Shown one piece after another: positions 28,706-52,305 of a DNA stretch of 64,000 nucleotides. The first letter of the stretch is position 1. The number at the start of each line of letters is the position of its first letter. The position numbers and the translations under genes were made by a program. A model generated the notes under the pieces. It was given only the letters and a program-made list of their open reading frames with translations. It was not told the origin of the DNA and did no database searches. The DNA is from Archangium sp. (lineage in GTDB: Bacteria; Myxococcota; Myxococcia; Myxococcales; Myxococcaceae), in contig NZ_DASUNC010000017.1 in the NCBI RefSeq assembly GCF_036277355.1, positions 3,873 through 67,872 of the forward strand. The letters are read 5' to 3'.

Positions 28706-28821
28706 GGCGTTACTTCCTTGCTGTGCCCAGACCCATGGGTCAGGCCCCCTTGGCACGCAGGCACCCCACTTATGGCGTCGTGACCGCAGCCTACCATGGG
28801 ACTACCTCGCGCGGGGTGGGT

Positions 28822-30480: not shown

Positions 30481-31156
30481 GCACCGTCTGGATGACTTCG
30501 CCTCCCGCCGAGGCGAACTTCTGCCGGATGTGCCGCACGTGACTGTCGATGGTGCGATCACTCACCACCACGTCCTCGTAGACGCGCGTCATCAATTCGT
30601 CGCGGGTGAAGGCCTTGCCGGGTGCGCGCAGGAGCGCGGTGAGCAGGTGGAACTCGGTGACGGTGAGCACCACCTCCTGACCGTTCCAGTACGCGCGCCA
30701 CAGGTCCAGGTCCATCCGCAGGGGCCCGCGCAGCAGCACCTGGGCGGGCGAGGGAGCGGGCGCGGAGGGCGCGGGGCTCGCGGTGGCACGGGCCCGCCGC
30801 AGCACGGCCTTGACGCGCGCCACCAGCTCGCGCGGGCTGAAGGGCTTGGCGATGTAGTCATCTCCGCCCAGCTCCAGTCCGAGGATCCGGTCCACCTCGT
30901 CATCGCGCGAGGAGAGGAACACGATGGGGACCTCGTGGGCGCGGCGGACCTCGCGGCACATCTCCAGCCCATCCATCTCGGGCATCATGATGTCCAGGAC
31001 GATGAGCGCGGGCACGGAGCGGCGCACCTGCTCCAGGCCGGCACGTCCGTTGGAGGACTGCTCGACGTGGAAGCCCGCCTGCGAGAGGGCGAAGCCCACC
31101 ACCTCGCGCAGGTGCGGATCATCATCGACCACCAGGATGGAAGGACGTTCGGTCAC
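30449..31156 (-). CDS. OmpR-family response regulator
   Basis: REC domain (ILVVDDD...D..MPEMDG), with a winged-helix ending TVHGLGYRL. Confidence 0.9.
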   Translation of the reverse strand: MTERPSILVVDDDPHLREVVGFALSQAGFHVEQSSNGRAGLEQVRRSVPALIVLDIMMPEMDGLEMCREVRRAHEVPIVFLSSRDDEVDRILGLELGGDDYIAKPFSPRELVARVKAVLRRARATASPAPSAPAPSPAQVLLRGPLRMDLDLWRAYWNGQEVVLTVTEFHLLTALLRAPGKAFTRDELMTRVYEDVVVSDRTIDSHVRHIRQKFASAGGEVIQTVHGLGYRLAIP

Positions 31157-36104: not shown

Positions 36105-38405
36105 TCAGTCTCCAAGCACCGTCGCGACGGCCCGGTACTCCGGCCGCAGGATCCGCTCGGCCTCCGTGCCGGCCACGACCACCGGGAGCATCGCGCCCTC
36201 CAGCCCCGCCTCGGCCGAGAGCTTCACCGCGATGGGCGCCATCACCTTCGCCTCGATGAGCCGCTTCAAGGGCCGGGCGCCCAGCTTCGGGTCGTACCCG
36301 TGACGGGCCAGCCAGGCCCGCGCGTCCGGCTCCACCACCAGCCGCAGTCTGCGCCGCAACAGCCCCGCCCGGGAGGCCGCCTTCTCCAGCTCCAGGTCGA
36401 CGATCCGCAGCACATCCGCCTCCGACAGCCGGCGGAACGGAATGACGTGATCGATGCGGTTGAACAGCTCCGGCCGGAAGGTCTGCCGGATGGCGCGCAT
36501 GAAGTCCTCCGAGCCGCGCTCGGCCCCGAAGCCCGTGGGCTCCGACTGCTCGACGCCGAGGTTGCTCGTCATGCACACCACCGTCATCCGGAAGTCCACC
36601 AGCCTCCCGAGGCTGTCCGTCAGCCTCCCCTCCCCCAGGATGCCGAGCAGCAGATCGAACACCTCGGGGTGCGCCTTCTCGATCTCATCGAAGAGCACGA
36701 GCGACATCGGCTGTTGCCGCACCCGCTCGGCGAGGCTGGTGATTCCCGGGCCCACCTCCATCAACCGCTGGGCCGAGCCGGGCTGCATGTACTCGGACAT
36801 GTCGAGCCGGATCATCCGGTCCTCGTTGCCGAAGAGCGTGCGCGCGAGCTGCTTGGACAGCTCCGTCTTCCCCACGCCCGTGGGCCCGGCGAAGAGCAGC
36901 GTGCCCACCGGCTTCTCCGGATCGTTGAGCCCCGCCTTGAAGCGCGCCAGCACGCCCGCCGCCAGCTCGCAGGCGCGATCCTGCCCGATGACCCCCTGCC
37001 GCAACTGTCCCGCCAGCGAGGCCTGCTCTGCGGGCACCTCGTCACTGATGAGCTGGAGCGGCAGCCCCGTGTAGCGCGCGTAGGCCTCGGAGACATCGCG
37101 CGGATAGAGCGTCCGGGCCTTGCCCGGCTCGCCCTGCTGCTCCAGCCAGTCGAGGAAGCGGAAGGCCTTGCCCGGAAACAGGCTGTCGCGCTGGAACGTC
37201 TCCAGGTGCCCGACGAGCTGTCTCAACCCCAGGGCATGGATGCTCACCCGGCTGCGCTTCGCCGCCTGGTAGCGCAGCATCAGCTCCGGCACCTGCGAGG
37301 CCGGCGGAGGCTCGATGCGGATGATGCGGAAGGGCCGCAGCGACTCCGGGAAGCGCCGCTGGCAGCGCTCCAGCTCGGCCTCGGTGCACTCGGCGATCAG
37401 GGAGATCTCCCCGCTCATCGCCGCGGGCAGCAGCAGATCTCCAATGGACGAGCCGTCCGGCTGGGGCGCGAGGATCGACGTGAGCCGGTCCACGTAGAGG
37501 TAGTCGTTCTCGTTCGAGAGCGCGTCGACGATCTTCAGGCAGCGCTCCTGCCACATGCCCAGGTACACCATGCCGGCGACGATGCGCTCGGCGCTGGTGC
37601 GCCAGATCCTCGGCAGGCTCACCTTCTTGTCCTCACGCCGCTGCTCGGCGATCAGCCGCGCGAGCTTCAGCACCTGGCTCGTCTTGCCGGAGCCCGGGCC
37701 CCCCACGAGCAGCAGGGACTGCGGTGGCTGGCGCTGCGCGTGGGCGAGCCAGGAGCGCATCGACTCGGCGTCGTACACCAGTGCCGGCTGCCTGCCTCCC
37801 AGGGCGCGCGAGGTCAGCTCCTCGCTGATCTGCTCGAGGACTTCAGGAGGCCGCTCCTCGCCCGGGCCGCGCCGGTTGTCCCGCAGCAGCCAGCCGAGGT
37901 CCCAGCTGCTCACGTACTCCGCGCCCTCGTGGCGGAAGTCGTACAGCCCCTTGGGCTTCTCCCCGAGCAGCACGGTGGTGAGCGCGTTCTGCAACACCTC
38001 GCGCGCGATGGAGAGCTCCTCGAGCACGAACGACCAGCCGAAGCGCGGCACCCGCACGCGCCAGGCACCGCTCTCCAGCTTCCCGTAGACGTACGTCAGC
38101 TTGAGCGGGATCAGCGCCTTGGCGATCACCGGCCGCTTCTTGTGCACGGTCTGCGGGTGGATCTCCACGGTGATGGTCCGCGCCTCCAGGCTCTCCTCCC
38201 AGAGGAACCGACCGAGCCCGGCTGGGTTCTCGAGCATCATCAACCGGATGCGCGTCTCGAGCAGCGCGTAGATCTCCGCCTCGCTGTTGCCGTAGGCCGA
38301 GGGCGGAGGATCATCGAAGAAGCTGTCCCAGACCGGCAGGAGCTGCCCGGTGAGCCGGCCATCGTGGTGGGTGGTGAAGTAGACGCGAAGGCTCTTGTCG
38401 CTCAT
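36105..38405 (-). CDS. ClpA/ClpV-like double-AAA+ ATPase, paralog 3 (unrecognised ~190-aa N-domain; no C-terminal extension)
   Basis: D1 Walker A LLLVGGPGSGKTS. D2 LLFAGPTGVGKTELSKQLA, Walker B LVLFDEIEKAHPEVFDLLL, sensor MTSNLG, FRPELFNRID. No ClpB middle domain (Walker A1 to A2 is ~280 aa). The ATG (MSDKSLRVY) overlaps the upstream stop as ATGA. Confidence 0.8.
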   Translation of the reverse strand: MSDKSLRVYFTTHHDGRLTGQLLPVWDSFFDDPPPSAYGNSEAEIYALLETRIRLMMLENPAGLGRFLWEESLEARTITVEIHPQTVHKKRPVIAKALIPLKLTYVYGKLESGAWRVRVPRFGWSFVLEELSIAREVLQNALTTVLLGEKPKGLYDFRHEGAEYVSSWDLGWLLRDNRRGPGEERPPEVLEQISEELTSRALGGRQPALVYDAESMRSWLAHAQRQPPQSLLLVGGPGSGKTSQVLKLARLIAEQRREDKKVSLPRIWRTSAERIVAGMVYLGMWQERCLKIVDALSNENDYLYVDRLTSILAPQPDGSSIGDLLLPAAMSGEISLIAECTEAELERCQRRFPESLRPFRIIRIEPPPASQVPELMLRYQAAKRSRVSIHALGLRQLVGHLETFQRDSLFPGKAFRFLDWLEQQGEPGKARTLYPRDVSEAYARYTGLPLQLISDEVPAEQASLAGQLRQGVIGQDRACELAAGVLARFKAGLNDPEKPVGTLLFAGPTGVGKTELSKQLARTLFGNEDRMIRLDMSEYMQPGSAQRLMEVGPGITSLAERVRQQPMSLVLFDEIEKAHPEVFDLLLGILGEGRLTDSLGRLVDFRMTVVCMTSNLGVEQSEPTGFGAERGSEDFMRAIRQTFRPELFNRIDHVIPFRRLSEADVLRIVDLELEKAASRAGLLRRRLRLVVEPDARAWLARHGYDPKLGARPLKRLIEAKVMAPIAVKLSAEAGLEGAMLPVVVAGTEAERILRPEYRAVATVLGD

Positions 38406-41400
38406 GGGGTCACCCGCTCGCTCATCCGCAGCCGCCACAGGGCCGGCAGGGCCTCGGCGGGATTCCTCACCCGATGGCTGCCGCTGTGGGTCAGCAGGTA
38501 GTCATCCAGCTCCAGCACCGACACCGCTCCCGGACGTGCGGGCGGCTCGAAGCGGTAGGCGCGCACGACGGGAGCCGCCGCCTCCGGATCCTCCGGGAGC
38601 GGGCTCACGCCCTCCTGGCGTGCCTTGTGGAAGGCCTGGAGCTTCACGGCATGCAGCGCGAGCAGCTCCGCGGGCGATGGCGCATTCGCCTCGTGAACGC
38701 GGACCTTGACGATCTCCGGGAGCCGGCCCGAGGACTGCCACACGTGCAGCCCGGCCTCGCCCTCGAAGAAGGGCCGCACGCCCGGGCCCACCAGCTTGAT
38801 CGCGGCATGCACGGGCTCCTGCATGGACAGGTGCAGGAACTCCCGGAGCTGCCGGGGCCCACCGGACACCAGGGCCCCACCGGGCAGGTGCGCGGCGAAG
38901 GACTCGATCTCCCCACGCGAGTGCGCATAGGCCGAGCAGAGCCACCGGGCGAGCAGCGACCCGGAGGACGCGCCCTGACGCCACTGGCCGAGCGGGAGCA
39001 GCTCCAACATGACCACGTGCTGATCCGGGCTGGAAATCCCCCGGAGGATGCGTTGCAGGAAGTAGACCTCCGACAGCGCATCGAGCATCTGCTCGCGGGA
39101 GACGGCCTTCACCGGCTCGAACGCGCGCCGGGCGAAGAGCCGGATGCGTGTCCCCTGGGACCAGCGATCGGCGCCAATCCGCTCCACGCCGAAACGCTCG
39201 GCCTCGATCATCTCCCGCTCCGTCTCCTCGGGAGCGCGGGCGAGAGACTCGAGTTGCGCCGCGAAGGCCTCCAGGTACATCCGCATCGCATCGAGCGTGA
39301 AGAGCGACTCGGCGTGATCGTGCTCGCCCGCCCGCAGACGCTCCAGGTGGAAGCGGACCTGCTCGGACAGGGCACCGAGCGCCTCGCTCTCGCGCAGCTC
39401 CTGCACCACCTCACGCAGCTCGAGCATCTTCTCGCGCAGCCGTGCGATGGGGAGCGACAGGAGTGGCTCCAGCGCGAAGCCCTGGGCCAGCGGCTCCCGG
39501 GGAATGAGCGCATCGGCCTGCGCCTCGAAGCGGCCCTCCCGGGTGTAGAGCTGGAACAGCCGCATGAGCGCCTGGGGTCCCCGGATGATGGCATCGGAGA
39601 GGACCTGCCCGACCTTCTCCTCCAGGTAGCGCTTCAGCGGCCGCGCGCCCAGGTGGGGATCGAAGGCCTCCTCGACGATGCGCCGCTTCACCGCCTCGTC
39701 GGCGGCCACGAAGATGTTGCGGGACACGAGCCCGTGCCGCGACAACAGTCGCGCCAGCTCCTTCTCCACCACCTTCTCGCCCACGTCCCGCGAGAGCGGC
39801 GAGAAGTGCACGATGCGATCGATGCGGTTGAAGAGCTCGGGCGGGAAGAACTCGCGCACGGCCCGGTCCGCATCCAGCTCCAGGGCGCGCGCGTCCGGCG
39901 CACCGAGCCCCACCGCCGGCTTGCGCCGCGCCCCGAGGTTGCTCGTCATCACGATGACGGTATGGGTGAAATCCGCCGTCTCGCCCGAGGCATCCGTCAA
40001 CCGGCCCTCGTCGAACGTCTGCAGCAGCAGGTTGAGCAGCGAGGGATGTGCCTTCTCGATCTCATCGAGCAGCACGAGCGAGAAGGGCTGCTCGCGGATG
40101 AGGCGCGTCAACCGGCCCTCGGGCTGCCAGGCGTCGCCCGTGAGCCGCGCGACGGCATCCGGCGTCTGGAACTCGCCCATGTCGAGCCGCACCAGCCGCG
40201 ACGCATCGCCATACAGGTAGCCGGCCAGCGCGCGGGCGAGCTCCGTCTTTCCCGTGCCCGTGGGGCCGGTGAACAGATAGACGCCGTAGGGCCGCCGGGG
40301 ATCCGTGAGTCCGGCATGGATGCGCGCGACGAGATCGCACGCCACGCGCACCGCCTCCGGCTGTCCCATCACCTTGCGCGACAGGGCCTCGTGGACCTCC
40401 TCGGGCACCAGCCGCTCCTGGGGGCGCAGGAGGAAGTCCGGCAGGCCCGTCCTGCGCGACAGGTGCGCGAAGAGCTCGCCGACGCCGAGCTCCCGGCCCG
40501 GGGCTCCCTGGTCCGTGGCCAGCTCGCGCAGCAGATCGAGCGCCTTGCCCGGAAGCGCGGACCCGGAGAAGAGCGTCCCCGCCTGCTCCAGCAGCACCGG
40601 GAAGAGCGGAGGGGACCAGGCGATGTGGTGCTTGGACTCCAGCTCGCGCGCCTCGTGCAGCAGCATGCGCAGTGTCTCGTCGGTGCGGGTGGAGCGCACG
40701 TGCACCTGGGTGAAGAGCGCGGCGAAGGACGGGGCGTCCGTCTCCAGCCGCTGGAGCTGCTCGGGCGTCACCGTGCCGGCGAGCGTGAGCTCTCCACGTG
40801 CCAGGGCTCCCTGGAAGAAGAGCGCGAGATTGGTGTCACTCTCCCGCGAGCGGCCGATGCGGCCGAAGGCATGCAGGTCCTCGATGAAGAGGATGCGCCG
40901 CCCTCCCCTCGTGTCCTCGAGCACCTTGAGGCAGCGCTGCTCCCAGTCGCCCACGTAGCTCATGCCGGCGATGATCCGCTTGCCGGCGATCGACCAGACC
41001 TCGGTCACCTTGTCCAGGTTGCGGTGGGTCTGGAAACCATCGGCCTCGAGCTGCTCGGCCACGAAGCGCTTGAGCAGGGTCCGCTTGCCGCAGCCGGGAG
41101 GACCCACGAGCAGCACCGGCGTGCGCCGCTCGCCTCCGAGCAGGAGCTGGAGTTGCTCCCGGTAGGGGCCGCGCGGCATGCCGGTATCGAGCGTGCCCTC
41201 CGCGGCCTGGAGGGTGAGGTTCGTCCCCAGCTTGTGCAGCACCTGGGTGCCGCCACCGGACTTCTTCTGCTTCTTCTTGCCGCCGGCCCGTTCCCGCCGG
41301 TCCTCGGCCTCCAGGTCGTCCCAGGGCCCCTTCTTCTTGCCGAGCTCGTCGAGCAGCGACTTCGGCTGGGCCATGAACGCGAGCGCCTTGAGGGTGTCCT

Positions 41401-41875
41401 TGCGGTTGGAGCGCAGGTCATCGTGCTCGTACGGCTCCAGCTGGGCCCAGGCACGGGTGAAGAAGACCTTCGCCTGCTCCTCGAGACTGGCGCCGGTATC
41501 GACCGGGAACCACTCGTGCTGGCGCGCGGGGTGGTAGGCGATGGTCATGAGCTCGTCGCGCGTGCGCCAGCGCGGCTCGAGGATGAGCGGGAAGAGACCG
41601 GACAGCCGCGGCGTCTCGGTTCCGGTGCGCACGCGCTTGAAATCCAGCTCGAGCTGTACCCGCTCCAGGCGGATGCCTCGGGGGAGCTGGAAGTACGACA
41701 GCTCCCGGACGGGCAGCTCGCCGATGATGCTCCGGAGATCCTCCACGAGCTTCTGCTGGAGCTTGACGGTGCTCCGTCCCTCTCGGCTGCGGGTATGGGG
41801 GCCGAGCGCGAGCGTGGTCCACCGGTAGCCACTGGAGGCATCGCGGCTCTGGTACACGCCAAGAGTGAGGTTCAT
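38402..41875 (-). CDS. ClpA/ClpV-like double-AAA+ ATPase, paralog 2 (unrecognised ~250-aa N-domain with Lys-rich linker; ~380-aa C-terminal extension)
   Basis: D1 VLLVGPPGCGKRT and ILFIEDLH. D2 YLFTGPTGTGKTELARALA, LVLLDEIEKAHPSLLNLLL, FFPPELFNRID. ATG (MNLTLGV) in an ATGA overlap with the upstream stop. Confidence 0.8.
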   Translation of the reverse strand: MNLTLGVYQSRDASSGYRWTTLALGPHTRSREGRSTVKLQQKLVEDLRSIIGELPVRELSYFQLPRGIRLERVQLELDFKRVRTGTETPRLSGLFPLILEPRWRTRDELMTIAYHPARQHEWFPVDTGASLEEQAKVFFTRAWAQLEPYEHDDLRSNRKDTLKALAFMAQPKSLLDELGKKKGPWDDLEAEDRRERAGGKKKQKKSGGGTQVLHKLGTNLTLQAAEGTLDTGMPRGPYREQLQLLLGGERRTPVLLVGPPGCGKRTLLKRFVAEQLEADGFQTHRNLDKVTEVWSIAGKRIIAGMSYVGDWEQRCLKVLEDTRGGRRILFIEDLHAFGRIGRSRESDTNLALFFQGALARGELTLAGTVTPEQLQRLETDAPSFAALFTQVHVRSTRTDETLRMLLHEARELESKHHIAWSPPLFPVLLEQAGTLFSGSALPGKALDLLRELATDQGAPGRELGVGELFAHLSRRTGLPDFLLRPQERLVPEEVHEALSRKVMGQPEAVRVACDLVARIHAGLTDPRRPYGVYLFTGPTGTGKTELARALAGYLYGDASRLVRLDMGEFQTPDAVARLTGDAWQPEGRLTRLIREQPFSLVLLDEIEKAHPSLLNLLLQTFDEGRLTDASGETADFTHTVIVMTSNLGARRKPAVGLGAPDARALELDADRAVREFFPPELFNRIDRIVHFSPLSRDVGEKVVEKELARLLSRHGLVSRNIFVAADEAVKRRIVEEAFDPHLGARPLKRYLEEKVGQVLSDAIIRGPQALMRLFQLYTREGRFEAQADALIPREPLAQGFALEPLLSLPIARLREKMLELREVVQELRESEALGALSEQVRFHLERLRAGEHDHAESLFTLDAMRMYLEAFAAQLESLARAPEETEREMIEAERFGVERIGADRWSQGTRIRLFARRAFEPVKAVSREQMLDALSEVYFLQRILRGISSPDQHVVMLELLPLGQWRQGASSGSLLARWLCSAYAHSRGEIESFAAHLPGGALVSGGPRQLREFLHLSMQEPVHAAIKLVGPGVRPFFEGEAGLHVWQSSGRLPEIVKVRVHEANAPSPAELLALHAVKLQAFHKARQEGVSPLPEDPEAAAPVVRAYRFEPPARPGAVSVLELDDYLLTHSGSHRVRNPAEALPALWRLRMSERVTP

Positions 41876-44800
41876 CGCGAGGCCCCCCGGATCACGTCGA
41901 GCGCGAAGGAGAATCCACTCTCGGCATCGAAGTTCCCGGAGCTTTCGAGCAGCAGGATGTGTTCGAGCAGGATCCGTTCGAGCGCCTGGAAGTGCTCCCA
42001 GGAATCCAGCTGAAGCTTGCGTGCGCCATCGCACAGCAGGAGCTCGCCGCCGGGAACGTACTCACGGATGGCTGGCATCAACCGCAGCTCCCGGAGATCC
42101 TTGCCGGCCCGTTGTGCCGGAGGGGCGATGGCGGGCAGCTCGAGCTCCTTCTGGAACAGCTGGGTGGACATGGCAACGGGCCTGACCTCGACCTGGACCA
42201 GCTCGTCCTTCTCGGTGGGGGGATAACGATGAACCCCGGCCTCGAGCGCCAGGAAGGCCCCCGCGTTCGTGCCGTTGACCAGGAGCAGTACCTCCCGGAA
42301 GGCCCGCGAGGGCGCGGCCAGCTCCTTCCGAAGCTGCTCCGCACCCAGCAGCTTGTCATCCCACTTGCGCTTGCGCTCGCTGCTCTTGTGGGTGACCGAG
42401 ACGCGGCCCTCGACCGTCCAGCCGCGCCGGGGCGCATCCTCGATCAGCGGCAGGATCCAGCGCTCGAGGCCGCGTGTCTCCCCCGCCTCCTGGAGGATGA
42501 GCGTGATCTGATCCCTCCGGGGCTGGAGCGCGAGCAGCACGGACGGCATCAGCTGGCGGATGGCCTTCATCTGCGCGTGGGCCTCGTCCACGAAGGGGGC
42601 GGCATCCTGCTGCTCGAAGAGCGCCATCAGCGCCAGCTCCTCGGCGGCCAGGAGCGATGCGCGCAACCGCCGGGCCTCGCTCCAGAGCGCCTCGAGCCGG
42701 CTGTGCTCGTACTGGAGTTGTCCCAGCGAGGACGCCTCGGGCCCTCGCATCTTCTTCTGATCTCCCTGGGCGAGCTGGGCCACCAGGAAGTGGATCCGCT
42801 CCCCCACGTTCTCCACGGCATCCATCCGGAAGAGCCTGTCGATGACCCGCCGCTGCTCCTGCAGGTCGCGCACGAGCTCGAGCTGGTTGCGCGCCGTCTT
42901 CGGGCTGCCCTTGGTCAGCTCCACGGCAATGCCCCCGGGACGGGAGGCGATCACCACACGGCCGCCCTGGGCCTCGGGCCCGGCCTCGGAGAGCATGCGG
43001 GCGATGGGGACGACGAGCTGCTGGTCCAGGTGCCTGCGCATGGCCCGGGCGCCATAGGCCTCCTGGTAGCCGGAGGTGGCGAGCGCGGTGGTGATCTCCG
43101 GAGGCACCTCGAGCGAGACCCCGCGCTGCATCAACCCGCGCCGCTGCCGCAGCTTGTCCACGCCGAGCCGGGCCACCTCCGCCGCCTGCTCGGGGGTGAG
43201 CGGGTGGAAGGGAATGAGCTGGTCGATGCGGTTGACGAACTCGGGGCGGAAGTGACGGTGCACCTCGCGCAGGTAGTACGAGGCGTCATCCACCGAGGTA
43301 GCGCCGATGCCCAGCGGGGAGCGGCGGTGCGCCACGCCGAGGTTGCTCGTCATGATGATGATGGCGTTGTGGAACCACGCCGTCTGCCCCCGGGCATCGG
43401 TGAGCCGCCCTTCCCCGCACACCTGCAGGAGCAGATCGAAGACGGCCGGGTGGGCCTTCTCGATCTCGTCGAGCAGGAGCACGCAGAAGGGCTGCTGGCG
43501 GACGCGGCGCGTGAGCAGCCCCTCGCCCTGGGTGTTGCCCCGGATGAGCCGTTCGGCGGCCCAGCCGTCCATGAACTCGCTCATGTCGAAGCGGAACATC
43601 CGCTCCGGCGAGCCGAAGAGGAACGTGGCGAGCAGCCGCGCGAGCTCGGTCTTCCCGACGCCGGTGGGGCCCACGAAGAGGAAGGTGGCCAGCGGCTTGC
43701 CCTGGGGCTGGAGGCCCGCCTTCACCATGCACAGCGTCTCCACGACGCGGCGCACCGCCGTCTCCTGGCCCACGAGCTGGCGGCGGAAGTGCGCCTCGAC
43801 CTCCCCGGCGAGCAGCGCGCGGTCCTCGCGCAACAGGAACTCGGGGACGCCCGTCTTGAGGCTGAAGAGCGAGTACACGCGCTCGCGGGTGAGCAGGGGC
43901 ACCTCGCCCGTGCCCGTGCGCTCCTGTTGCAGTCCCGCGCGCATCTCCTCGTACAACCGGATCGCCTTGCCGGGCAGCGCGCGGCTCGGCAGGTAGCGCT
44001 CGGCCAGGTCCACGAGCGGATCCACCGCGTCGTCGGCCAGCGAGTACCGCGAGGGCTCGGCCTTGCGTTGCCAGACCGTCCGGCTCCGGAGCGCCTCACG
44101 GGTCTGCCGCGTCCCCAGGGGCTCCAGGCGCACGCGGCCGAGCACCGCGAAGAGGCCCGGGTGCCGGTTCTCGAGCAGATCCAACGACTCGGGGGTGAGC
44201 TCTCCGAGGAACCGCACCCGGCCCTCCTCCAGGAAGGGCTTCATCGCGCCGGGGATGTCCACGTGCTCCGAGGACTGCTGCGCGAGCAGCTCCCCGAGGT
44301 TCTCGAAGTACAGGACGGCGTCGAGCTCCTGTGCCGCACGCATGACCCGCAGCACGCGCTCCTGCCACTGGCCGAAGCCGGACATGCCGGCGATCAACCG
44401 CGAGCCGCTCGTGGCGTACACGCGCCGCTCGCGGCCGGCCTTGCGCTCGGCGCGGAGCCACGCGAGGAGCAGCTCCGTCTTGCCCACGAGCTCCGGGCCC
44501 ACGAGCAGCACGCCCTGCCGCTTCTCGCCGCCGAGCAGGCCGGACAGCAGCGCGAGCTCGGTGTCCCGGGCGATGAGGGGCGGTCCGTGCCGGGCCTCGT
44601 CGCGATCATGCAGCACCGTGGAGACGGAGAGGAGCACCTGGTGCGCCTGCTCCCGCTTGAGCTTCTCCTCCAGCTTCTTCTTCGCCTGCCGGGCCTTGTC
44701 GCTCGCGTCCTGACGCCGGAGCGCGAGCTGGACGGTCTCGAGCGTCACGAACTTCGGAGGCAGCAGCCGCAGGTACTCATGGGCGGCCGGCTCGCGCGCG

Positions 44801-45234
44801 GCGAGCAACCGCTCCACGTCCGCGCGCACCGTCTCGCGCACGTCCTGGTTCCTGCCCACGTAGACCGTGTGATCGATCGCCGGCACGAAGACCCACGTCT
44901 CCTCCGCGAGCGGCACGACGATGGTGGCCAGCTCGACGGTGACGGGCTTGACGAGCTTCTTGGGGAGATCGGCGCGGGGGGCGAGGATCTCCAGCATCTC
45001 GAGCCGCACCTGCTCGGGGAAGGAGAAGCGGGCCAGCTCCTCGGGCTCCACCCTGGACAGGTGCTCCTCGAGGAACAGGCGCTGCTCGCCCAGACAGGCC
45101 TCGAGCGTGGGCGCGTGGCTCGTCAGGGTGGGCGCGGCCACGGGGAACACCTGGTGGTCCCCGTTCCACAGCTGCTGGCAGACGAGCGGCGTGGAGAACT
45201 CGAGCGTCCCGGGGACGGCATTGGAAGAAGCCAT
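41872..45234 (-). CDS. ClpA/ClpV-like double-AAA+ ATPase, paralog 1 (unrecognised ~240-aa N-domain; ~350-aa C-terminal extension)
   Basis: D1 VLLVGPELVGKTELL. D2 FLFVGPTGVGKTELARLLA, VLLLDEIEKAHPAVFDLLL, MTSNLG, FRPEFVNRID. It is the first gene of the three-gene unit. Confidence 0.8.
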   Translation of the reverse strand: MASSNAVPGTLEFSTPLVCQQLWNGDHQVFPVAAPTLTSHAPTLEACLGEQRLFLEEHLSRVEPEELARFSFPEQVRLEMLEILAPRADLPKKLVKPVTVELATIVVPLAEETWVFVPAIDHTVYVGRNQDVRETVRADVERLLAAREPAAHEYLRLLPPKFVTLETVQLALRRQDASDKARQAKKKLEEKLKREQAHQVLLSVSTVLHDRDEARHGPPLIARDTELALLSGLLGGEKRQGVLLVGPELVGKTELLLAWLRAERKAGRERRVYATSGSRLIAGMSGFGQWQERVLRVMRAAQELDAVLYFENLGELLAQQSSEHVDIPGAMKPFLEEGRVRFLGELTPESLDLLENRHPGLFAVLGRVRLEPLGTRQTREALRSRTVWQRKAEPSRYSLADDAVDPLVDLAERYLPSRALPGKAIRLYEEMRAGLQQERTGTGEVPLLTRERVYSLFSLKTGVPEFLLREDRALLAGEVEAHFRRQLVGQETAVRRVVETLCMVKAGLQPQGKPLATFLFVGPTGVGKTELARLLATFLFGSPERMFRFDMSEFMDGWAAERLIRGNTQGEGLLTRRVRQQPFCVLLLDEIEKAHPAVFDLLLQVCGEGRLTDARGQTAWFHNAIIIMTSNLGVAHRRSPLGIGATSVDDASYYLREVHRHFRPEFVNRIDQLIPFHPLTPEQAAEVARLGVDKLRQRRGLMQRGVSLEVPPEITTALATSGYQEAYGARAMRRHLDQQLVVPIARMLSEAGPEAQGGRVVIASRPGGIAVELTKGSPKTARNQLELVRDLQEQRRVIDRLFRMDAVENVGERIHFLVAQLAQGDQKKMRGPEASSLGQLQYEHSRLEALWSEARRLRASLLAAEELALMALFEQQDAAPFVDEAHAQMKAIRQLMPSVLLALQPRRDQITLILQEAGETRGLERWILPLIEDAPRRGWTVEGRVSVTHKSSERKRKWDDKLLGAEQLRKELAAPSRAFREVLLLVNGTNAGAFLALEAGVHRYPPTEKDELVQVEVRPVAMSTQLFQKELELPAIAPPAQRAGKDLRELRLMPAIREYVPGGELLLCDGARKLQLDSWEHFQALERILLEHILLLESSGNFDAESGFSFALDVIRGASR

Positions 45235-45289
45235 GGGCCCGCCATCCTATCCTGATGAGGTACGCTGGCGGCAGGAGGCATTCCCCACG

Positions 45290-46435
45290 ATGGCGCATGT
45301 GAATCCAAGCATCTTCCAGTCCGCGCTCGAGCGGCGGTTGCGCGACGAGCTCCTCGCGGGCGAGGACACCCAGCGGGCGCTGCGGCATGTGGACGCGGTG
45401 CCGGGCAGGTTCGGCGGCGTCGCGAGGCAGAGGCAGCTGCTCTCGAACGCCTTCAAGCTGACGCGCCCGGTGGCCCCGCGGGTCCTGGATGCGCTGGCCG
45501 CCTGCAAGGAGGTCCTGGGCCACGAGGGACCCGTGGATGTGTTCGTCAACCCGGAGCCCATGATCCGGGCCGCGGCGGTGCAGGCCCCGCCGGACACTCC
45601 CGCCATCGTTCTGTCCTCCCGGCTCCTGGAGGTGTTCCAGGAGGCCGAGCTGCGCTTCATCCTCGGGCACGAGCTCGGGCACCTCGCCTTCGAGCACTTC
45701 ACCCTGCCCCTGCCGGCCACGGCCCTGGCCTGGGACGGAGAGGATGGACGATTCGTCTCCCCCGCCACGGCGCTCGGGCTGTACCGGTGGAACCGGGCGG
45801 CCGAGGCCAGCGCCGACCGGGCGGGACTGCTGTGCTCCCGGGAGCTGGAGGCCTCCGCGGGCGTCCTGCTCGCACGGGTGAGCGGATGGACCGCAGGCTC
45901 GGTGAAGTCCGAGCTGCAGGCGGCGGCGCGCCATGTGGACGCGCTCCTGTCCGATCCATCGGCCCGTGAGCGGCCCAGTGAGGACGATGAGGTACTCGGC
46001 GGTTTCCGCGCCCATGCCTTCAGCCCATGGCGGGTGCGTGCCCTCGCGGCGTTCTCCAAGACGAGGACCTTCCTGAAGAGCGCGGGCCGCTATGCGAGCG
46101 AGGAGGGACTGTCGGACGAGGAGGCCGACACCCTGCTGGCGTGGGAGCTGCGGGAGCTGGATCCCTCCTACCTGGAGAAGTCCGAGCATCCCGAGCTGCT
46201 GAACCTGGCCCTGACGACGGGGAAGCTCCTGCCCGTGCTGGAGCAGCTGTACCAGGAGCGGGCGACCCTGTCCGAGCGGGCCCGGCTGGCGCAGCACTTC
46301 GCCTTGATGAAGGCCCCGGACGGCGTCGTGGACAACCTGGGTTACCTGGAGCTGAGGAAGGTGGCCGGAGCGCTGGCGGTGCCCACGTGGCTCGTGGACG
46401 AGGCCCTGCGCGGCGCCAGCAATCCCTTGGATTGA
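45290..46435 (+). CDS. Soluble M48-family zinc metallopeptidase-like protein
   Basis: HEXXH plus a downstream Glu: FILGHELGHLAFEH. ATG at 45290 with GGAGG 14 nt upstream (the track's 44921 start was rejected). No obvious TM. Transcribed divergently from the AAA+ triad, 55 bp away. Confidence 0.7.
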   Translation: MAHVNPSIFQSALERRLRDELLAGEDTQRALRHVDAVPGRFGGVARQRQLLSNAFKLTRPVAPRVLDALAACKEVLGHEGPVDVFVNPEPMIRAAAVQAPPDTPAIVLSSRLLEVFQEAELRFILGHELGHLAFEHFTLPLPATALAWDGEDGRFVSPATALGLYRWNRAAEASADRAGLLCSRELEASAGVLLARVSGWTAGSVKSELQAAARHVDALLSDPSARERPSEDDEVLGGFRAHAFSPWRVRALAAFSKTRTFLKSAGRYASEEGLSDEEADTLLAWELRELDPSYLEKSEHPELLNLALTTGKLLPVLEQLYQERATLSERARLAQHFALMKAPDGVVDNLGYLELRKVAGALAVPTWLVDEALRGASNPLD

Positions 46436-46639
46436 ATCCTCTCAATCCCGTGGTGGGGACACGAGGATGTGGAGGTCGGGCCACCGCTCGCGCAGGAGCC
46501 GCTCCAGCAGCCCGAGTCCCCACCGCTCCGAGCGCCAGCCCCATGCGGCACACGGGCTGTTCTCGCGCGACGACGATCCGGGTGCGCTCACCCGTCTCGG
46601 CGGAAGCACCCAGCAACTGGTCGATGTGCCCAGCGATCT

Positions 46640-46930
46640 CGTCAAGCCTCATGGTTGCAAGGATATCCACCCAATCCCTACCAATCCAGCAAAACGAATG
46701 TCTGTCTTTATCTAAATACATAAAAAACACATCAAATTATAGTTTGTATTTACTTAAAAAAGAAAAACATATCGTCACAATCACAAAAGACAAACATAGA
46801 CAAAAACAAATACAGACTTCCACTCCACAATCCCTGACAGGAAATCAAGACTATGGAATTAATTTCTGTATTTGATTGCTCCATTCTGACACACAAAAGA
46901 CGCCAATGTAAGTGCGACACACACCAGTTC
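46640..46930. other. AT-rich island (~35% GC, A/C-rich on the plus strand) within a ~70% GC context; non-coding
   Basis: Abrupt base-composition shift. No plausible ORF by codon usage. Lies between the M48 gene and the ceramidase-like gene. Confidence 0.5.
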
Positions 46931-46942
46931 TTGGGCATGAAG

Positions 46943-47058
46943 ATGTCGTGAGATGTAGGCATGATGGGGCTCAACAAAGAGGTCCCCCAGGTATGCTGAT
47001 GTAGGCACGATATCCGGACGGAGAGGGCCTGTCCGGGACGAGCCCATCGAGATGTAGG
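46943..47058. repeat. Three direct repeats of GATGTAGG(CA[CT]GAT), spaced 46 and 53 bp, immediately upstream of the ceramidase-like gene
   Basis: GAGATGTAGGCATGAT at 46950; CTGATGTAGGCACGAT at 46996; GAGATGTAGGTTCGAG at 47049. There is also a degenerate GATGTCGT at 46943. Confidence 0.4.
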
Positions 47059-47066
47059 TTCGAGCC

Positions 47067-47807
47067 ATGAACGGCATGGCAGCGCCCGAGAAGCTCCTCC
47101 AGCCCGGTTGCCCCTGGTGGGACATGCGGGTCGCCTGGGGCGAGCCGAACGTGAAGTGGTGCGAGGCCACGGTCTGCGCCTGGGTGAACGAGCCCGCGAA
47201 CGCCTGGTCCAACCTCGCCTACCTGGCGGTGGCGTGCTGGTGTGCGTGGCGGTGGCGGCTCACGGGCAGCCGCGCCATGGGGCGCTTCGCTTGGACGACG
47301 GGGCTCGTGGGGGCGTTCTCCTTCGCCTTCCACGCGACGAACACCTTCGCCACCCAGCTCCTGGACTTCGTGGGGATGTACGTGCTCGCCTTCCTGCTGG
47401 TGGCGCTGAACCTACACCGCCTGGGTTGGCTGCCTCGCGAGCGGGTGGGCACGGTCCACGCCGGGCTGACGGTGGGGTGCACCCTGCTCGTGCCGGTGCT
47501 GAGGCTCGCCGGGTTCCCCTACCAGCTCGTGGTGCTGGGGGCGGTGCTGGTGATCGTGGGAACCGAGATCCGCCTGTCCCGGCGGAAGGACCCGCGAGAG
47601 TCGTACCGGGACTTCTGGCTCGCGGTGGGGCTGATGGCCGCGGCGGCGGCGTGCTCGGTGGCGGACGTGACGCGGGCGTGGTGCGACCCGGACAATCACT
47701 GGGTGCAGGGACATGCGGCCTGGCATGTCCTGAGTGCGCTCGCGCTGCTGTTCACCGCGCGGCACCACGCCGGGCTGGAGCTCAGGCGTCAGCGCCCTCG
47801 TAGCTGA
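47067..47807 (+). CDS. Alkaline ceramidase family (PF05875) 7-TM hydrolase
   Basis: WGEPNVKWCEATVCAWVNEPANAWSNLAY (W..WCE...NxxSN), FSFAFHATNTFATQLLD (His + Q.LD), and C-terminal HWVQGHAAWH (H..WH). Confidence 0.7.
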   Translation: MNGMAAPEKLLQPGCPWWDMRVAWGEPNVKWCEATVCAWVNEPANAWSNLAYLAVACWCAWRWRLTGSRAMGRFAWTTGLVGAFSFAFHATNTFATQLLDFVGMYVLAFLLVALNLHRLGWLPRERVGTVHAGLTVGCTLLVPVLRLAGFPYQLVVLGAVLVIVGTEIRLSRRKDPRESYRDFWLAVGLMAAAAACSVADVTRAWCDPDNHWVQGHAAWHVLSALALLFTARHHAGLELRRQRPRS

Positions 47808-47985
47808 TGCGCAGCCCCTGGTGGGTCACCGTGAGGAGGGGGCGGCCAAACCAGCCGCAGTGCTTGCAGACGCCGTGGGTACCGGCTGCCGAGACGCGCA
47901 CCGGCAGATCCGCGCCGCACGAGGGGCAACCCTCGGGCAGCGTGTAATCGCGCGTCGGCACCTGGACATGGGAGACGTCGGTCAT
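47782..47985 (-). CDS. Small zinc-ribbon protein (67 aa)
   Basis: CPSCGADLPVRVSAAGTHGVCKHCGW has two CxxC pairs. It converges on and overlaps the ceramidase-like 3' end by 26 nt. Weak RBS. Confidence 0.35.
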   Translation of the reverse strand: MTDVSHVQVPTRDYTLPEGCPSCGADLPVRVSAAGTHGVCKHCGWFGRPLLTVTHQGLRISYEGADA

Positions 47986-48398
47986 TGATCAGGAGTAACG
48001 CAGGCACCGGGCCATGCAAGCCGCGCCCCGGTGCCCCCCCGCGTGCCTGAGCCGGCGCGTCGGCCTGACCGTCAGACAGGCAGGCAGACAGCCATTCGAG
48101 CGCCGTGTGGCCTCACTCCTCGGTGGAGCGGGTGAAATGAATTGAATCGACACACATCCAGCGAGCAGCCAGGCGTCGAGACACATACGGCCAGGAGAGT
48201 TGATTTCACTCCCCGGGGACAAGCCTCTTGGAAACTTTCGTCAGGGCAGGACTTTCTCGTATTTCCGCGAAAACTTCTATCAGCATTGCAATCACTCTCA
48301 TCCAATACATGAAGAAGAGGGATTGATGGTGGCCGCCGCGTTGGATCGCGAGTCTGGTTTTATGTCAAAGAATTGGACCCGAAGTCGCGAGGTACCTC

Positions 48399-49835
48399 AT
48401 GTCCTCCAGCGCGCGTTGGTTGTTGCTCCTGGTCCCCGGGATGTTGTTCTTCTACACCCTCAGCGGAGCACCCCGTGAAGCCGAGGCCGCCCCACGCGGT
48501 GGAGGGGTGTGCAAGAAGTGTCCGCCAGACGCGGGCACGGGCGGCTCCGATGCGGGCACTCCGGACGCGGGCACGGGTGGCTCGGACGCGGGCACGGGCT
48601 CGGATGCGGGTACTCCGGACGCGGGCACGGGCGGCTCGGACGGTGGCACGGTTCCGCCCACGGACTGCCTCGGCCAGCCGCTGCTCGATTCACTCGGGAA
48701 GGATCACGTGCTCGTCGGAGGACAGACGGACAGCTCCGTGGCCGGGCTGGCTCCGTTCGACATCCGATACATCTACCTCGCGGGTGGCCTGTTCGACAGC
48801 GCGGAGCCGTGCAACTCGTGCAGCACGAGCTGCTCCTCCGCCGGACAGTCCTGCTCCAACTGGAATCCCAATGGCTGCGGCTGGTGGGGGTGCTGGCAGT
48901 GGGACCAGATTCCTCCGGGGCAGTACCTGCGTGACTACTTCCAGCAGACGATCAATCTGGGACAGGTCCCGATGATCACCTATTACCAGATGCTCCACGC
49001 CAGCCGTGTCTCCGAGGGCTCGCCGGAGGTGGCCGCGGCGCAGACCGTCTCCTTGATGCAACGTTATTACAATGACTGGCGTTTCGTGTTGCAGCAGATT
49101 GGTACTTCCACCGCATTGCTTCACATCGAGCCGGACTTCTGGGCGTACGCGCAGCAGGTGAACACCAATCCTCACATGATTCCGGCGGCGGTCGCCTCGG
49201 CCAATCCCACGGATTGCGCGAACGTGGAGAACACCATCGCCGGCATGGGCCGCTGCATGATCGCCATGGTCCGCAAGTACGCCCCCAACGCCAAGGTGGG
49301 CCTGCATGCCTCGGCGTGGGCCACGAAGATCGACGCCATGATGAACACCAACCCCGCGCTCGACGTGGAGGGCGAGGCCCGCAAGGTGGCGGACTTCCTC
49401 AGGGAGTGCGGTGGCGCCAACGGGGACTTCGTCGTGGTGGAGACGAGCGACCGCGACGCCCAGTACTACCAGGTGCGTCTGGGCCGGAACAGCTGGTGGG
49501 ATACGGCCAACACCACGCTCCCACACTTCCGTCAGGCCTTCCGGTTCGCCAAGGCGCTCTCGGAGCGGATGGGCCGGCCCAACATCTGGTGGCAGATCCC
49601 CGTGGGCAACATGTCCATGCCCGGTTACGACCAGCACTGGAAGGACAACCGTCTGGACTACTTCTTCGATCACCCGCAGGAGGTGGCCGCCGCCCACGGT
49701 ATCGGCATGATCTTCGGCGCGGGCGAGCAGGCCCAGACGAACCCCTCCACCGACAGCGGGCACCTGGTGCTGCGGACGAACAACTACTTCCTCACTGGTG
49801 GGCAGCCCGCCTGCCTCAACGCCAGCATGCCCTGA
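48399..49835 (+). CDS. Secreted protein with Gly/Asp/Ala/Thr-rich repeat linker and Cys-rich segment; possible TIM-barrel glycosidase-like domain
   Basis: Signal peptide MSSSARWLLLLVPGMLFFYTLSG; (DAGTGGS/DAGTP)x4 linker; CNSCSTSCSSAGQSCSNWNPNGCGWWGCWQW; ~330-aa C-terminal domain (HIEPDFWAYAQQ, VVETSDRDAQYY). Confidence 0.7.
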   Translation: MSSSARWLLLLVPGMLFFYTLSGAPREAEAAPRGGGVCKKCPPDAGTGGSDAGTPDAGTGGSDAGTGSDAGTPDAGTGGSDGGTVPPTDCLGQPLLDSLGKDHVLVGGQTDSSVAGLAPFDIRYIYLAGGLFDSAEPCNSCSTSCSSAGQSCSNWNPNGCGWWGCWQWDQIPPGQYLRDYFQQTINLGQVPMITYYQMLHASRVSEGSPEVAAAQTVSLMQRYYNDWRFVLQQIGTSTALLHIEPDFWAYAQQVNTNPHMIPAAVASANPTDCANVENTIAGMGRCMIAMVRKYAPNAKVGLHASAWATKIDAMMNTNPALDVEGEARKVADFLRECGGANGDFVVVETSDRDAQYYQVRLGRNSWWDTANTTLPHFRQAFRFAKALSERMGRPNIWWQIPVGNMSMPGYDQHWKDNRLDYFFDHPQEVAAAHGIGMIFGAGEQAQTNPSTDSGHLVLRTNNYFLTGGQPACLNASMP

Positions 49836-49925
49836 GCGAGGCCGCGGGCCCGGCGGGCGTCAGGGGTGCGCTCCTGACGCTCGCGCTTGACATCGGCTCG
49901 CCGTCCGGGCCTGGGTAGGGGCCGC

Positions 49926-50120
49926 ATGGATGAGACTCCGCCCTCCCCGCTGCCCTTCCCGACGAGCCTCTGTCACCGCTGCGCGGCGCCGCCGAAGTAC
50001 GTGAGGACGAAGACGTCCACGTTCATCCTCTGCCCGCTGTTGCCGCAGAAATACGCGCCCCAGCCGGTGCTCCGGTGTCCCCTCTTCCGGCCGAAGTCCC
50101 CGGAGCCGGAAGCGAAGTAG
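49926..50120 (+). CDS. Small Cys-containing hypothetical protein (64 aa)
   Basis: MDETPPSPLPFPTSLCHRCAAPPKYVRTKTSTFILCPLLPQKYAPQPVLRCPLFRP has four Cys in two pairs. The track ORF starts at 49887. Confidence 0.35.
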   Translation: MDETPPSPLPFPTSLCHRCAAPPKYVRTKTSTFILCPLLPQKYAPQPVLRCPLFRPKSPEPEAK

Positions 50121-50135: not shown

Positions 50136-51131
50136 TCAGCCCAGGTGCTGCAGCTCGCGCGAGAGCTGGGTCTCCAGGTCCCGGATGTTGCGGTACACGA
50201 GGCAGCGGTAGGCCGCGACGTCGAACTTGAGTTCCTTGAGATCGCGGACGAGCAGGATGGTGGGCCGTCCCCTGCCCCACGCGTAGCCGACCTCCAGGTA
50301 CACGTTGGGGTTGGCCATGGACAGGTCCGCGATGACGACCTTCGCGGTGTCGATGCGCTCCTTGATCCGCTGGATGATGGCGCCCTCGAACACGGCTTGA
50401 TCCACGCGCTCGCACAGGAGCCCCGCGCCCTTCACGGGGCCCAGGATGCCGTAGTGGTAGACGTCCTCCATCTCGGAGGCGAAGGGCATGGCGACGAAGG
50501 CGTGGGGCTTGGCCAGCGACTGCGCCCCGGCCGTGGCCATGGGCGGCGCCTGGACGTGCTGGCTCGTGCGCTTGACGCGGAAGCCCCAGCCGCTCGTCAG
50601 GGGCTCCACCCCCGGGCTCTTCCCGAGTCCCCGCTCCAGCGCCGTGCGAAGCCGGTCCGCCCGCTTCTGCTGCAGCTCCACCACGGTGATGCGCTCCAGC
50701 CCCTGGGGCCCGGCACCCCGCATGAAGGCCTCGACGAGGCCTCCGACGAGCGCGAGCGCCGCCTCGTCCTCGTCCAGGCCGTAGTTGGGGCCGTGCACCG
50801 TGCAGGCGACGTGGCGGATGTCCGGGCGCGACTCGAGCGCCTTGAGCGCCCGGGCCGCGAACTGGCGAATCTCGTGGTAGCCGAACTTCCCCAGCTTCAC
50901 GGTGCCGAGGAAGAGGGCCAGGGGCGCGCCGATGGCGCCTCGCGTCTCGATGAAGACATGCTCCCCGATGGGCACCGAGAAGCTCGCCATCGGGATGCCC
51001 GCCTGGACGAGCCGCGAGGCCACGGCCTGATCCGCGCCGTAGAAGCTCTGGGCGTGCTTGAGCAGCACCACGTCCGCGCGCGTATCGGTGATGTTTCCGG
51101 CTTCCAGAACGAGATCGAGGGCAGCGCTCAT
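50136..51131 (-). CDS. Two-domain protein: unknown N-domain + C-terminal nucleoside 2-deoxyribosyltransferase-like/TIR-like domain
   Basis: C-terminus HAFVAMPFASEMEDVYHYGILGPV...AKVVIADLSMANPNVYLEVGYAWGRGRPTILL matches the NDT/Rcl-like signature (FxAxPF; D-x-N; E-x-G-Y-A; GKP-x-I). Lies 16-34 nt downstream of rtcA on the same strand. Start is ATG 51131 or GTG 51149. Confidence 0.65.
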   Translation of the reverse strand: MSAALDLVLEAGNITDTRADVVLLKHAQSFYGADQAVASRLVQAGIPMASFSVPIGEHVFIETRGAIGAPLALFLGTVKLGKFGYHEIRQFAARALKALESRPDIRHVACTVHGPNYGLDEDEAALALVGGLVEAFMRGAGPQGLERITVVELQQKRADRLRTALERGLGKSPGVEPLTSGWGFRVKRTSQHVQAPPMATAGAQSLAKPHAFVAMPFASEMEDVYHYGILGPVKGAGLLCERVDQAVFEGAIIQRIKERIDTAKVVIADLSMANPNVYLEVGYAWGRGRPTILLVRDLKELKFDVAAYRCLVYRNIRDLETQLSRELQHLG

Positions 51132-51165
51132 CGGGAGGGACTGTCTCACGGAGGGGGCGGGCCCG

Positions 51166-52239: not shown

Positions 52240-52305
52240 GCCCCTTCCCCTCCGAGAAAGTCCCGCGCAGCCTAGCAGAAGGCTTTCGGGTACTGTCCGC
52301 CCGCC

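Follow-up and report, generated by a model that had tools for sequence, protein, structure and literature searches.

A co-conserved trio of Clp/Hsp100-type ATPase genes in Myxococcota, two of them with a release-factor-like C-terminal module

Bacterial Clp/Hsp100 unfoldases are seen as homohexamers in which N-domains and adaptors select the substrates. The eukaryotic type-II heterohexamer Pex1/Pex6 consists of paralogous double-ring subunits with a first AAA+ module (D1) that is a non-hydrolysing scaffold and a second one (D2) that is the motor, and HrpR/HrpS is a bacterial, co-operonic pair of paralogous AAA+ proteins that forms a heterohexamer. The release factors (RFs) RF1 and RF2 dock at the factor/A-site region of the ribosome. 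ClpI of Actinomycetota, a lineage-specific double-ring Clp class with variable N-domains and an LGF motif that is present or absent, was found in silico (PMC10149685). Burroughs and Aravind surveyed the RF families including RF1/RF2, ArfB, PrfH, ICT1, C12orf65 and the inactive mS35, and they describe Vms1, which has an eRF1-like domain and binds Cdc48 via a VIM motif; Clp and myxobacteria are unmentioned in this survey, and its mentions of AAA+ proteins concern Vms1-Cdc48 only (PMC6514570). Available accounts describe Drg1 and Rix7 as extracting proteins from (pre-)ribosomes. Here we analyse three genes, termed A, B and C, in a stretch of 64,000 nucleotides from Archangium sp. (contig NZ_DASUNC010000017.1), hereafter the window. 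The feature is real, conserved and undescribed, and it is best explained as a lineage-specific Clp/Hsp100-type machine of the Myxococcota with the subunits A, B and C, of which A and B carry an RF-like C-terminal module.

The three genes are consecutive on the minus strand, and their open reading frames (ORFs) lie precisely where an earlier note on this DNA had placed them (Table 1). Orthologues annotated by NCBI in Archangium have identical lengths of 766 and 1157 amino acids (aa), which supports the chosen start codons; the mechanical ORF of B extends further 5', up to a GTG at 42034. In comparison with proteins of A. violaceum Cb vi76 and A. gephyra, protein C shows 96% and 95% identity, respectively. 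The G+C content at third codon positions (GC3) of A, B and C is 0.88-0.93, similar to that of other genes in the window, which has approximately 70% G+C. Both junctions are ATGA stop/start overlaps, as previously noted, and they recur in related loci. The overlapping genes suggest that A-B-C is probably one transcript that is translated by coupling. The promoter of the trio, if any, must be located within the gap 5' of A or inside the divergent M48-like peptidase gene. No sigma-70-like site was found in this gap, and a promoter and terminator scan, which is uninformative at 70% G+C, detected nothing inside the cluster. Intact orthologues in dozens of genomes rule out a reading of the trio as pseudogenes or artefacts.

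Relatives were collected by a pattern scan with one genome per species, which returned 111, and 79 distinct loci were kept. All loci with a taxon label belong to the Myxococcota (the labels include Archangium, Cystobacter, Hyalangium, Vitiosangium, Chondromyces, Sorangium, Minicystis, Byssovorax, Sandaracinus, Haliangium, Kofleriaceae, Nannocystaceae and Enhygromyxa), and the remaining loci are from metagenome-assembled genomes (MAGs) labelled Delta- or Proteobacteria. Among the 61 loci with at least 7.5 kb of upstream sequence, the order A-B-C is kept in 49, in two classes of the phylum, and four have B-C. The complete order spans Archangiaceae, Polyangiaceae, Nannocystaceae, Sandaracinaceae, Haliangium and Kofleriaceae, and it is also present in Pendulispora. 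A 4-bp overlap is found at the B-C junction in 37 of 65 loci and at the A-B junction in 27 of 50, and most other junctions measure at most 11 bp; Minicystis rosea and Pendulispora brunnea have the same overlaps as the window. Long ORFs upstream of C all class cleanly as A or B orthologues, and full-length genes score 570-2180 bits against their own type and 180-315 bits against the other two types. Because each gene forms its own orthologue group, the triplication is older than the split between Myxococcia and Polyangia. In Sorangium, an A-B pair with a 24-bp gap (So ce834) and a lone C (So ce1014) are located at different sites; the genus retains all three families though C is unlinked from A-B. 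Myxococcus, Corallococcus and Stigmatella are absent among the best 120 matches for B or C, and this pattern of matches makes a loss of the trio in these genera probable. Overall, the trio acts like a module that is self-contained and inherited vertically.

Two irregular loci were found among the relatives. In one metagenome contig (L004), a 272-aa gene of unknown function lies on the opposite strand between A and B (5656-6474, minus strand). In a Polyangiales MAG (L086, 8001-13784), an apparent B-C fusion protein of 1927 aa with four Walker A motifs (P0180) was rejected as a frameshift or indel artefact: translation is out of frame at the end of B and in parts of C, and gene A on the same contig is in three pieces.

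All three proteins show the hallmarks of class-I double-ring Clp/Hsp100 proteins, namely tandem AAA+ modules and a D2 composed of AAA_2 and ClpB_D2-small. The Pfam AAA_2 model identifies a canonical D2 in A, B and C (E 2e-41, 7.5e-39 and 3e-43, respectively) and is accompanied by ClpB_D2-small in each (E 1e-11 to 1e-17), and the first AAA+ module is divergent in all three and aligns to D1 of ClpB. Each protein aligns to the ClpA model TIGR02639 as a single stretch, and in an alignment with E. coli ClpB the region of the M-domain (approximately residues 400-525) is almost wholly gapped. The proteins are distinct paralogues, with pairwise identities of 30-36% over both modules (E 1e-77 to 4e-83). 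The overlaps, the conserved order and this pairwise paralogy bear out the idea of co-operonic, coupled paralogues, and no evidence was found for the three-stage machine that had also been proposed. Of the earlier description as full-length ClpA/ClpV-like unfoldases with two AAA+ modules, ClpA-like spacing and no M-domain, the fold, the spacing and the true paralogy stand; the N-domain is not Clp_N, D1 lacks the residues for ATP hydrolysis and the D2 pore loop is truncated.

Scores against the NCBIfam models place the trio in none of the named families. The ClpA models gave 313, 325 and 302 bits (TIGR02639, cut-off 993) and 240, 214 and 225 bits (PRK11034, cut-off 1350) for A, B and C, the ClpB model TIGR03346 gave 293-329 bits (cut-off 1232) and the ClpV/TssH model TIGR03345 gave 212-256 bits (cut-off 885). 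Across ClpA, ClpB, ClpV, ClpK and ClpG, the scores are 3- to 9-fold under the cut-offs. The trio is a member of the Clp/Hsp100 superfamily that falls short of the tests defining ClpA, ClpB and ClpV. No curated NCBIfam family names the trio proteins, no type VI secretion system genes were found among the neighbours, and neither full-text literature searches nor the 2019 RF family survey (PMC6514570) returned a description of the trio. The impression recorded in the earlier note that this is not a described system was therefore upheld.

The ATPase motifs were surveyed in 48 A, 52 B and 75 C orthologues from related loci with E. coli ClpB as the reference. In D1, the Walker A lysine is retained and the position of the catalytic ClpB residue E279 is occupied by N (27), D (13) or S (6) in A, always by D in B, and by R (55), Q (7) or A (6) in C. 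The D1 arginine fingers (ClpB R331/R332) are absent in all three. The D1 pore loop is almost invariant (A-G-M-S-[Y or G-F]-x-G-x-W-x-x-R), and the position of ClpB Tyr251 holds a tyrosine in 74/75 C and 41/52 B, not in A. D2 is fully canonical in its active site: the equivalents of K611, D677/E678 and R815 are present in 48/48 A, 52/52 B and 74-75/75 C, and N719 (sensor-1) and R756 (the arginine finger, in 'NRID') are found in the family consensus at a level of at least 90% and in the ClpB alignment of the window proteins. A lack of the D2 arginine finger in B, as read from the R of ClpB 'GRTVDF', was considered and dismissed, since the true finger is R756, which is kept in all three proteins. 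In D2, pore loop 1 is shortened by 5-6 residues, with loss of GYVG; its aromatic residue (W/Y/F) is found only in B (49/52). Only one of the two modules is predicted to be competent for hydrolysis. At the motif level, all three proteins have a pseudo-ATPase as D1, which would serve at most as a nucleotide-binding scaffold, and D2, with all catalytic residues present, is the predicted motor.

Furthermore, all three proteins have a [VLMA]-G-[FIYL]-G loop at the tip of a helix-loop-helix, at the position of the ClpA IGL and ClpX IGF loops. Its glycine is found in 48/48 A, 51/52 B and 75/75 C, and the G-F-type loop is located at most 2 residues from the ClpA IGL in a HMMER alignment to the ClpB-ClpA chimera 5ofo. 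By its position, the G-[FIY] loop is a candidate docking site for ClpP, a possibility that we regard with some doubt.

The operon structure makes it probable that A, B and C work together as one complex. A mixed hexamer is inferred because the order and the 4-bp overlaps are kept over phylum-level divergence, all three families are retained even when unlinked, and the features of the subunits are complementary (the D2 aromatic only in B, the D1 tyrosine in B and C, the RF arm on A and B). Alternatively, the proteins could form three separate homohexamers that have their own N- or C-terminal specificity domains and substrates and are merely co-regulated. This would be consistent with a D2 active site that is complete in all three, including the trans-acting arginine of NRID, with a C that lies apart from A-B in Sorangium and some MAGs, and with the loci that contain B-C only. 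We consider it improbable in view of the same conserved order, retention and complementarity, and of HrpR/HrpS-type co-operonic AAA+ pairs, which form heterohexamers. A co-expressed multi-paralogue unfoldase, the core idea of the earlier note, is reasonable but unproven.

The approximately 360-390 extra C-terminal residues of A and B are what distinguishes them from C, which ends after D2. An AlphaFold2 model of the B module, built from 20 orthologues, had a predicted local distance difference test score (pLDDT) of 85.6 and a predicted template modelling score (pTM) of 0.82. In a Foldseek search of this model against the PDB, the top 46 matches were all release-factor chains, with a best E of 1.4e-6 and probabilities of 0.57-1.00 (at least 0.9 for 45 of the 46). 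The best alignments span approximately 350-420 columns and thereby the whole release factor. Their template modelling (TM) scores are low (0.2-0.3), which is expected for a multi-domain protein with differently arranged domains. The module has the RF fold and the RF domain order, with a helical domain at the N-terminus and the codon-recognition superdomain after it. When E. coli RF1 was compared with the modules by BLASTP, more than 20 A orthologues matched in a single register (RF1 141-261 to module 193-311; best E 3e-5 in a small database), tblastn of RF1 against the DNA of the related loci (approximately 1.8 Mb) gave an E of 7e-4, and hhalign placed the A module colinear with RF1 6-319. The alignment of RF1 and the A module pairs 'ERNAFLEVRAG...ARRWRVE' with 'RDQITLILQEAG...PRRGWTVE', and a further aligned stretch of the RF signature is 'LVNGTNAGAFLALEAGVHRYPPTE'. 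By hhalign, the two modules, that of A and that of B, are also homologous (92%, E 6e-7). Taken together, homology of the A/B module to release factors is very likely.

The catalytic part of the release factor is missing. In BLASTP alignments, the RF1 loop that carries the GGQ motif ('SSGAGGQHVNT') lies opposite an 11-residue gap in A, and GGQ is absent from the consensus sequences of both A and B. The 'E-x-G-x-H-R' signature of RF domain 2 is kept in A across the phylum, and in B the residues E269, G271 and H273 are invariant within 'FFEGEAGLHVW'. The 'GEAGLHVW' of B was considered as a GGQ-like motif and rejected, as hhalign and BLAST place it in RF domain 2 ('ESGGHRVQ'). We are confident, to a high degree, that A and B carry an RF-derived module that is unable to hydrolyse peptidyl-tRNA. 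Tentatively, A retains remnants of domain 3 ('AIREYVPGGELLLC' vs 'AIRITHLPTGIVVEC') but not domain 4, and B retains the long helix and a domain-4-like sheet ('VRAYRFEPP' vs 'NRTYNFPQ'). Among 1.84 billion representative proteins scanned with a HMMER profile, 277 matched; the best 150 of these comprised short fragments and full-length proteins of the size of B, without any further architecture, and a protein search with the C-terminal module of B alone returned 11 fragments only. On that evidence, the RF-like module appears confined to the trio family.

In five of the 48 A orthologues (L039, L045, L052, L053 and L055, all from Polyangiales-type MAGs), the RF module is followed by a tail of approximately 35 residues that resembles the C-terminal domain (CTD) of bL12 (PF00542, E 2e-7, up to 31.7 bits vs a cut-off of 25.9; 'IKxYRExxGVGLKEAKDAVE'). 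A of the window does not have this tail. The bL12-CTD motif is a second translation-related element in these orthologues. The RF-derived module, which the earlier note does not mention and which only becomes visible with tools, moves the likely biology of the trio away from a generic disaggregase or a secretion ATPase and towards a translation-associated machine; binding to the ribosome is inferred because the whole RF body is retained, the domain-2 signature is kept and the bL12-like element was added in some lineages. Such a link of the trio to the ribosome or to translation is possible, although we regard it as somewhat doubtful.

The mechanism could be as follows. A single transcript with ATGA-coupled translation would supply similar amounts of A, B and C, which would assemble into a mixed two-tier hexamer. 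Its upper tier (D1) would be a scaffold that lines the channel with the conserved pore loop and binds nucleotide at most, and its lower tier (D2) would be the motor. The RF-derived arms of A and B might dock on the factor/A-site region of the ribosome without releasing peptide, and the ring would then pull out a ribosome-bound polypeptide, such as a nascent chain, a stuck factor or a protein of the ribosome itself. The G-F loops may pass the substrate to ClpP. We hold this composite picture of a mixed Clp-type machine with ribosome-docking RF arms tentatively, just short of calling it probable. It may further be speculated that the three-subunit heterohexamer uses its disarmed RF mimics as 'grappling hooks' in the A-site to pull nascent chains, trapped factors or ribosomal proteins out of stalled or surplus ribosomes, which in this specific form we consider unlikely. 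We are equally sceptical that it is a bacterial counterpart of Vms1-Cdc48 or Drg1, derived independently from RF1/RF2 and with ClpP feeding as an option.

Several observations weigh against a mixed machine that docks on ribosomes. The evidence for a hetero-oligomer is indirect, the only 'fusion' protein is an artefact, and C stands alone in 8 of the 61 loci with sufficient upstream sequence. The D2 pore loops of A and C are without aromatics, which is unusual for a threading motor, and the module that follows the D2 small domain might face the ClpP side and hinder the docking of ClpP. The RF homology rests on the fold and on modest BLAST matches in a small database: a Pfam scan of the C-terminal modules of A and B gave no match at E<10, RF models included, a profile search of the PDB sequences with the module found no RF, and hhalign to a single RF1 sequence gave a probability of only 3-6%, which is low because the target is a single sequence. 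Neither a conserved stop-codon tripeptide (PxT/SPF) nor membership of Pfam PCRF or RF-1 was found; P-x-T at the anticodon-mimic position of RF1 is present only in Archangium, Cystobacter and Vitiosangium, in approximately 11 of 48 A. Finally, the flanking genes of the trio show no consistent linkage to a gene for ribosomes, tRNA, ClpP or rescue.

Alternatively, the same mixed unfoldase might have co-opted its RF module for a role away from the ribosome, for example in oligomerisation, regulation or the binding of substrates or adaptors. The machine would then be an unfoldase for proteostasis in general or for development, perhaps together with ClpP. The module is too diverged for HMMER or Pfam to link it to RFs, it has lost GGQ and does not conserve PxT, the trio has no linked translation gene, the IGF-like loops are conserved, and inactive structural domains derived from RFs are known, such as mS35 (PMC6514570). 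Nevertheless, a complete multi-domain RF layout and no mere fragment is kept, 'E-x-G-x-H-R' is conserved phylum-wide, a bL12-CTD-like motif was added in some orthologues, and the precedent mS35 is itself a component of the ribosome. We therefore regard a co-opted, non-ribosomal module as rather unlikely, and a general or developmental unfoldase as unlikely to the same extent.

The genomic surroundings of the trio bear on a further explanation, a mobile anti-phage or conflict system with ClpB-like ATPases comparable to Dodola (DolB) or PDC-M37. The PADLOC models for DolB and PDC-M37B do match the D2 module with E 1e-20 to 1e-24, and some conflict systems employ RF-like proteins (PMC6514570). 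The PADLOC matches are, however, confined to the generic D2 core (profile positions approximately 132-296), and no partner gene such as DolA is located nearby. Clustering of the flanking ORFs of approximately 80 loci revealed no conserved flanking gene; the flanks vary by lineage, and only promiscuous families were obtained, one of them Ser/Thr kinases. The phyletic pattern is that of vertical descent within a single phylum, where the internal order is stable and the flanks vary, searches of plasmids and phages returned no orthologues but only distant ClpB D1 matches or nothing, and the base composition matches the genome. A defence function thus seems very improbable.

Table 1 Coordinates of the gene trio, its domains and further features of the window.
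Feature	Position	Strand	Remarks
Gene A	41872-45234	minus	1120 aa, ATG start; basis: ORF, translation
A, N-domain	44590-45234		aa 1-215
A, D1	43915-44589		aa ~216-440
A, D2 and small domain	42949-43827		aa ~470-762
A, RF-like module	41875-42948	minus	aa 763-1120; GGQ loop deleted, E-x-G-x-H-R kept (EAGVHRYPPTE)
A/B junction	41872-41875	minus	ATGA stop/start overlap; reads '...tcgcgATGAacctc' at 41875-41872
Gene B	38402-41875	minus	1157 aa from ATG at 41875; basis: ORF, translation
B, N-domain	41171-41875		aa 1-235
B, D1	40511-41170		aa ~236-455
B, D2	39563-40468		aa ~470-771
B, RF-like module	38405-39562	minus	aa 772-1157; helical domain, then alpha/beta domain; no GGQ
B/C junction	38402-38405	minus	ATGA stop/start overlap; reads '...accccATGAgcgac' at 38405-38402
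Gene C	36105-38405	minus	766 aa from ATG at 38405; basis: ORF, translation
C, N-domain	37821-38405		aa 1-195
C, D1	37131-37820		aa ~196-425
C, D2	36108-37088		aa ~440-766
Gap 5' of A	45235-45289		55 bp, between the start of A and the divergent M48-like peptidase gene
M48-like peptidase gene	45290-46435	plus	divergent, 55 bp from the start of A; Pfam Peptidase_M48, E 1.5e-8
RtcA-type RNA 3'-terminal phosphate cyclase	51166-52476	minus	Pfam RTC, E 7e-68; ~6 kb from the trio
Nucleoside 2-deoxyribosyltransferase-like	50136-51149	minus	weak match; adjoins the RtcA-type gene
Stretch of lower G+C	46000-50000		G+C 0.64-0.65 vs ~0.70
Ceramidase-like membrane protein	47067-47807		within 46000-50000
478-aa ORF	48399-49835		within 46000-50000; no Pfam match
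Protein with five DUF7151 repeats	8288-10477	minus	G+C 0.64-0.65 vs ~0.70
DUF2378 gene	7470-8165	minus	Pfam E 4e-47
Sensor histidine kinase	4186-7491	plus	multiple PAS/GAF; adjoins the DUF2378 gene at 7470-8165
DUF2378 gene	28145-28801	minus	Pfam E 7e-55
Sensor histidine kinase	28822-30561	minus	adjoins the DUF2378 gene at 28145-28801
CmlA-like diiron beta-hydroxylase	2229-4001	plus	
Cytochrome P450	19653-21047	minus	
Two tandem GMC-type oxidoreductases	21052-24984	plus	
PF10136 'site-specific recombinase' family protein	10642-13032	plus	large; E 2e-183
Endonuclease III-like gene	13033-13731		directly downstream of the PF10136 gene

In the window, the neighbours of the trio are BioY, the M48-like peptidase, an RCC1-repeat protein and a beta-lactamase. 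The peptidase gene upstream of A is found only in Archangium-like genomes, not in Polyangia. An RtcA-type gene is located at some distance from the trio. PrfH-type release factors pair with RNA-repair genes; the proximity seen here is probably coincidence, since this neighbour is not conserved in other lineages. Elsewhere in the window, the two DUF2378 genes are paralogous, and the two stretches of lower G+C may have been acquired recently. The CmlA-like, P450 and GMC-type genes hint at tailoring enzymes of secondary metabolism, and no core synthase was seen in the annotated parts of the window.

Compared with the homohexameric Clp/Hsp100 unfoldases, the locus suggests an obligate version with three paralogues, tiers with separate tasks (a dead D1 that keeps its pore loop and an active D2 whose pore loops are reduced), and a targeting domain recruited from a release-factor body that has lost its catalytic loop. 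Should the RF arms bind to ribosomes, the trio would represent the first AAA+ unfoldase of bacteria that is physically addressed to the ribosomal A site and a new route for the rescue, remodelling or turnover of ribosomes, in organisms whose genomes are large and whose development is driven by starvation. In that case, it would moreover be a striking convergence with the eukaryotic Vms1-Cdc48. Even without a link to the ribosome, a conserved heteromeric Hsp100 protein would be a useful model for asymmetric AAA+ rings.

Among the described systems, ClpA/ClpC share with the trio the two AAA+ modules, the lack of an M-domain, a similar D2 and a hydrophobic-G-[F/L/I] loop at the IGL position. Unlike ClpA/ClpC, the trio has no Clp_N, a hydrolysis-dead D1, no GYVG, three different subunits and an RF-like module on A and B. 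Among solved structures, D2 of ClpB and ClpC are the best sequence matches (E ~1e-80), and the position of the ClpB/Hsp104 D1 pore-loop Tyr251 is conserved in B and C of the trio; ClpB differs in that it is a homohexamer with two active rings and has the M-domain that couples to Hsp70, which the trio lacks. ClpI, also lineage-specific, differs from the trio by its intact ATPase modules, its M-domain and its single gene. Pex1/Pex6 resembles the proposed ring of the trio in its way of working, in that its subunits are paralogous, its D1 is inactive and its D2 is the motor; it differs in having two subunits and no RF module, and is a eukaryotic member of the classic/NSF-Cdc48 clade that works on peroxisomal substrates. 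HrpR/HrpS, the co-operonic bacterial precedent, are single-ring transcription activators.

With RF1/RF2, PrfH and mS35, the C-terminal module of A and B shares the fold, the domain order and the E-x-G-x-H-R of domain 2, whereas its GGQ is deleted, PxT/SPF is not conserved, Pfam PCRF and RF-1 do not match and it is attached to the C-terminus of an AAA+ protein. If the link to the ribosome holds, the way of working of the trio would also be similar to that of Vms1-Cdc48 or of Drg1/Rix7. The coupling of a release-factor-type domain to a type-II AAA+ unfoldase is also seen in Vms1-Cdc48. There, the RF-like protein is separate, has the archaeo-eukaryotic eRF1 fold and is catalytically active, whereas in the trio a bacterial module of the RF1/RF2 type without GGQ, a putative ribosome binder, is fused to the ATPase itself.

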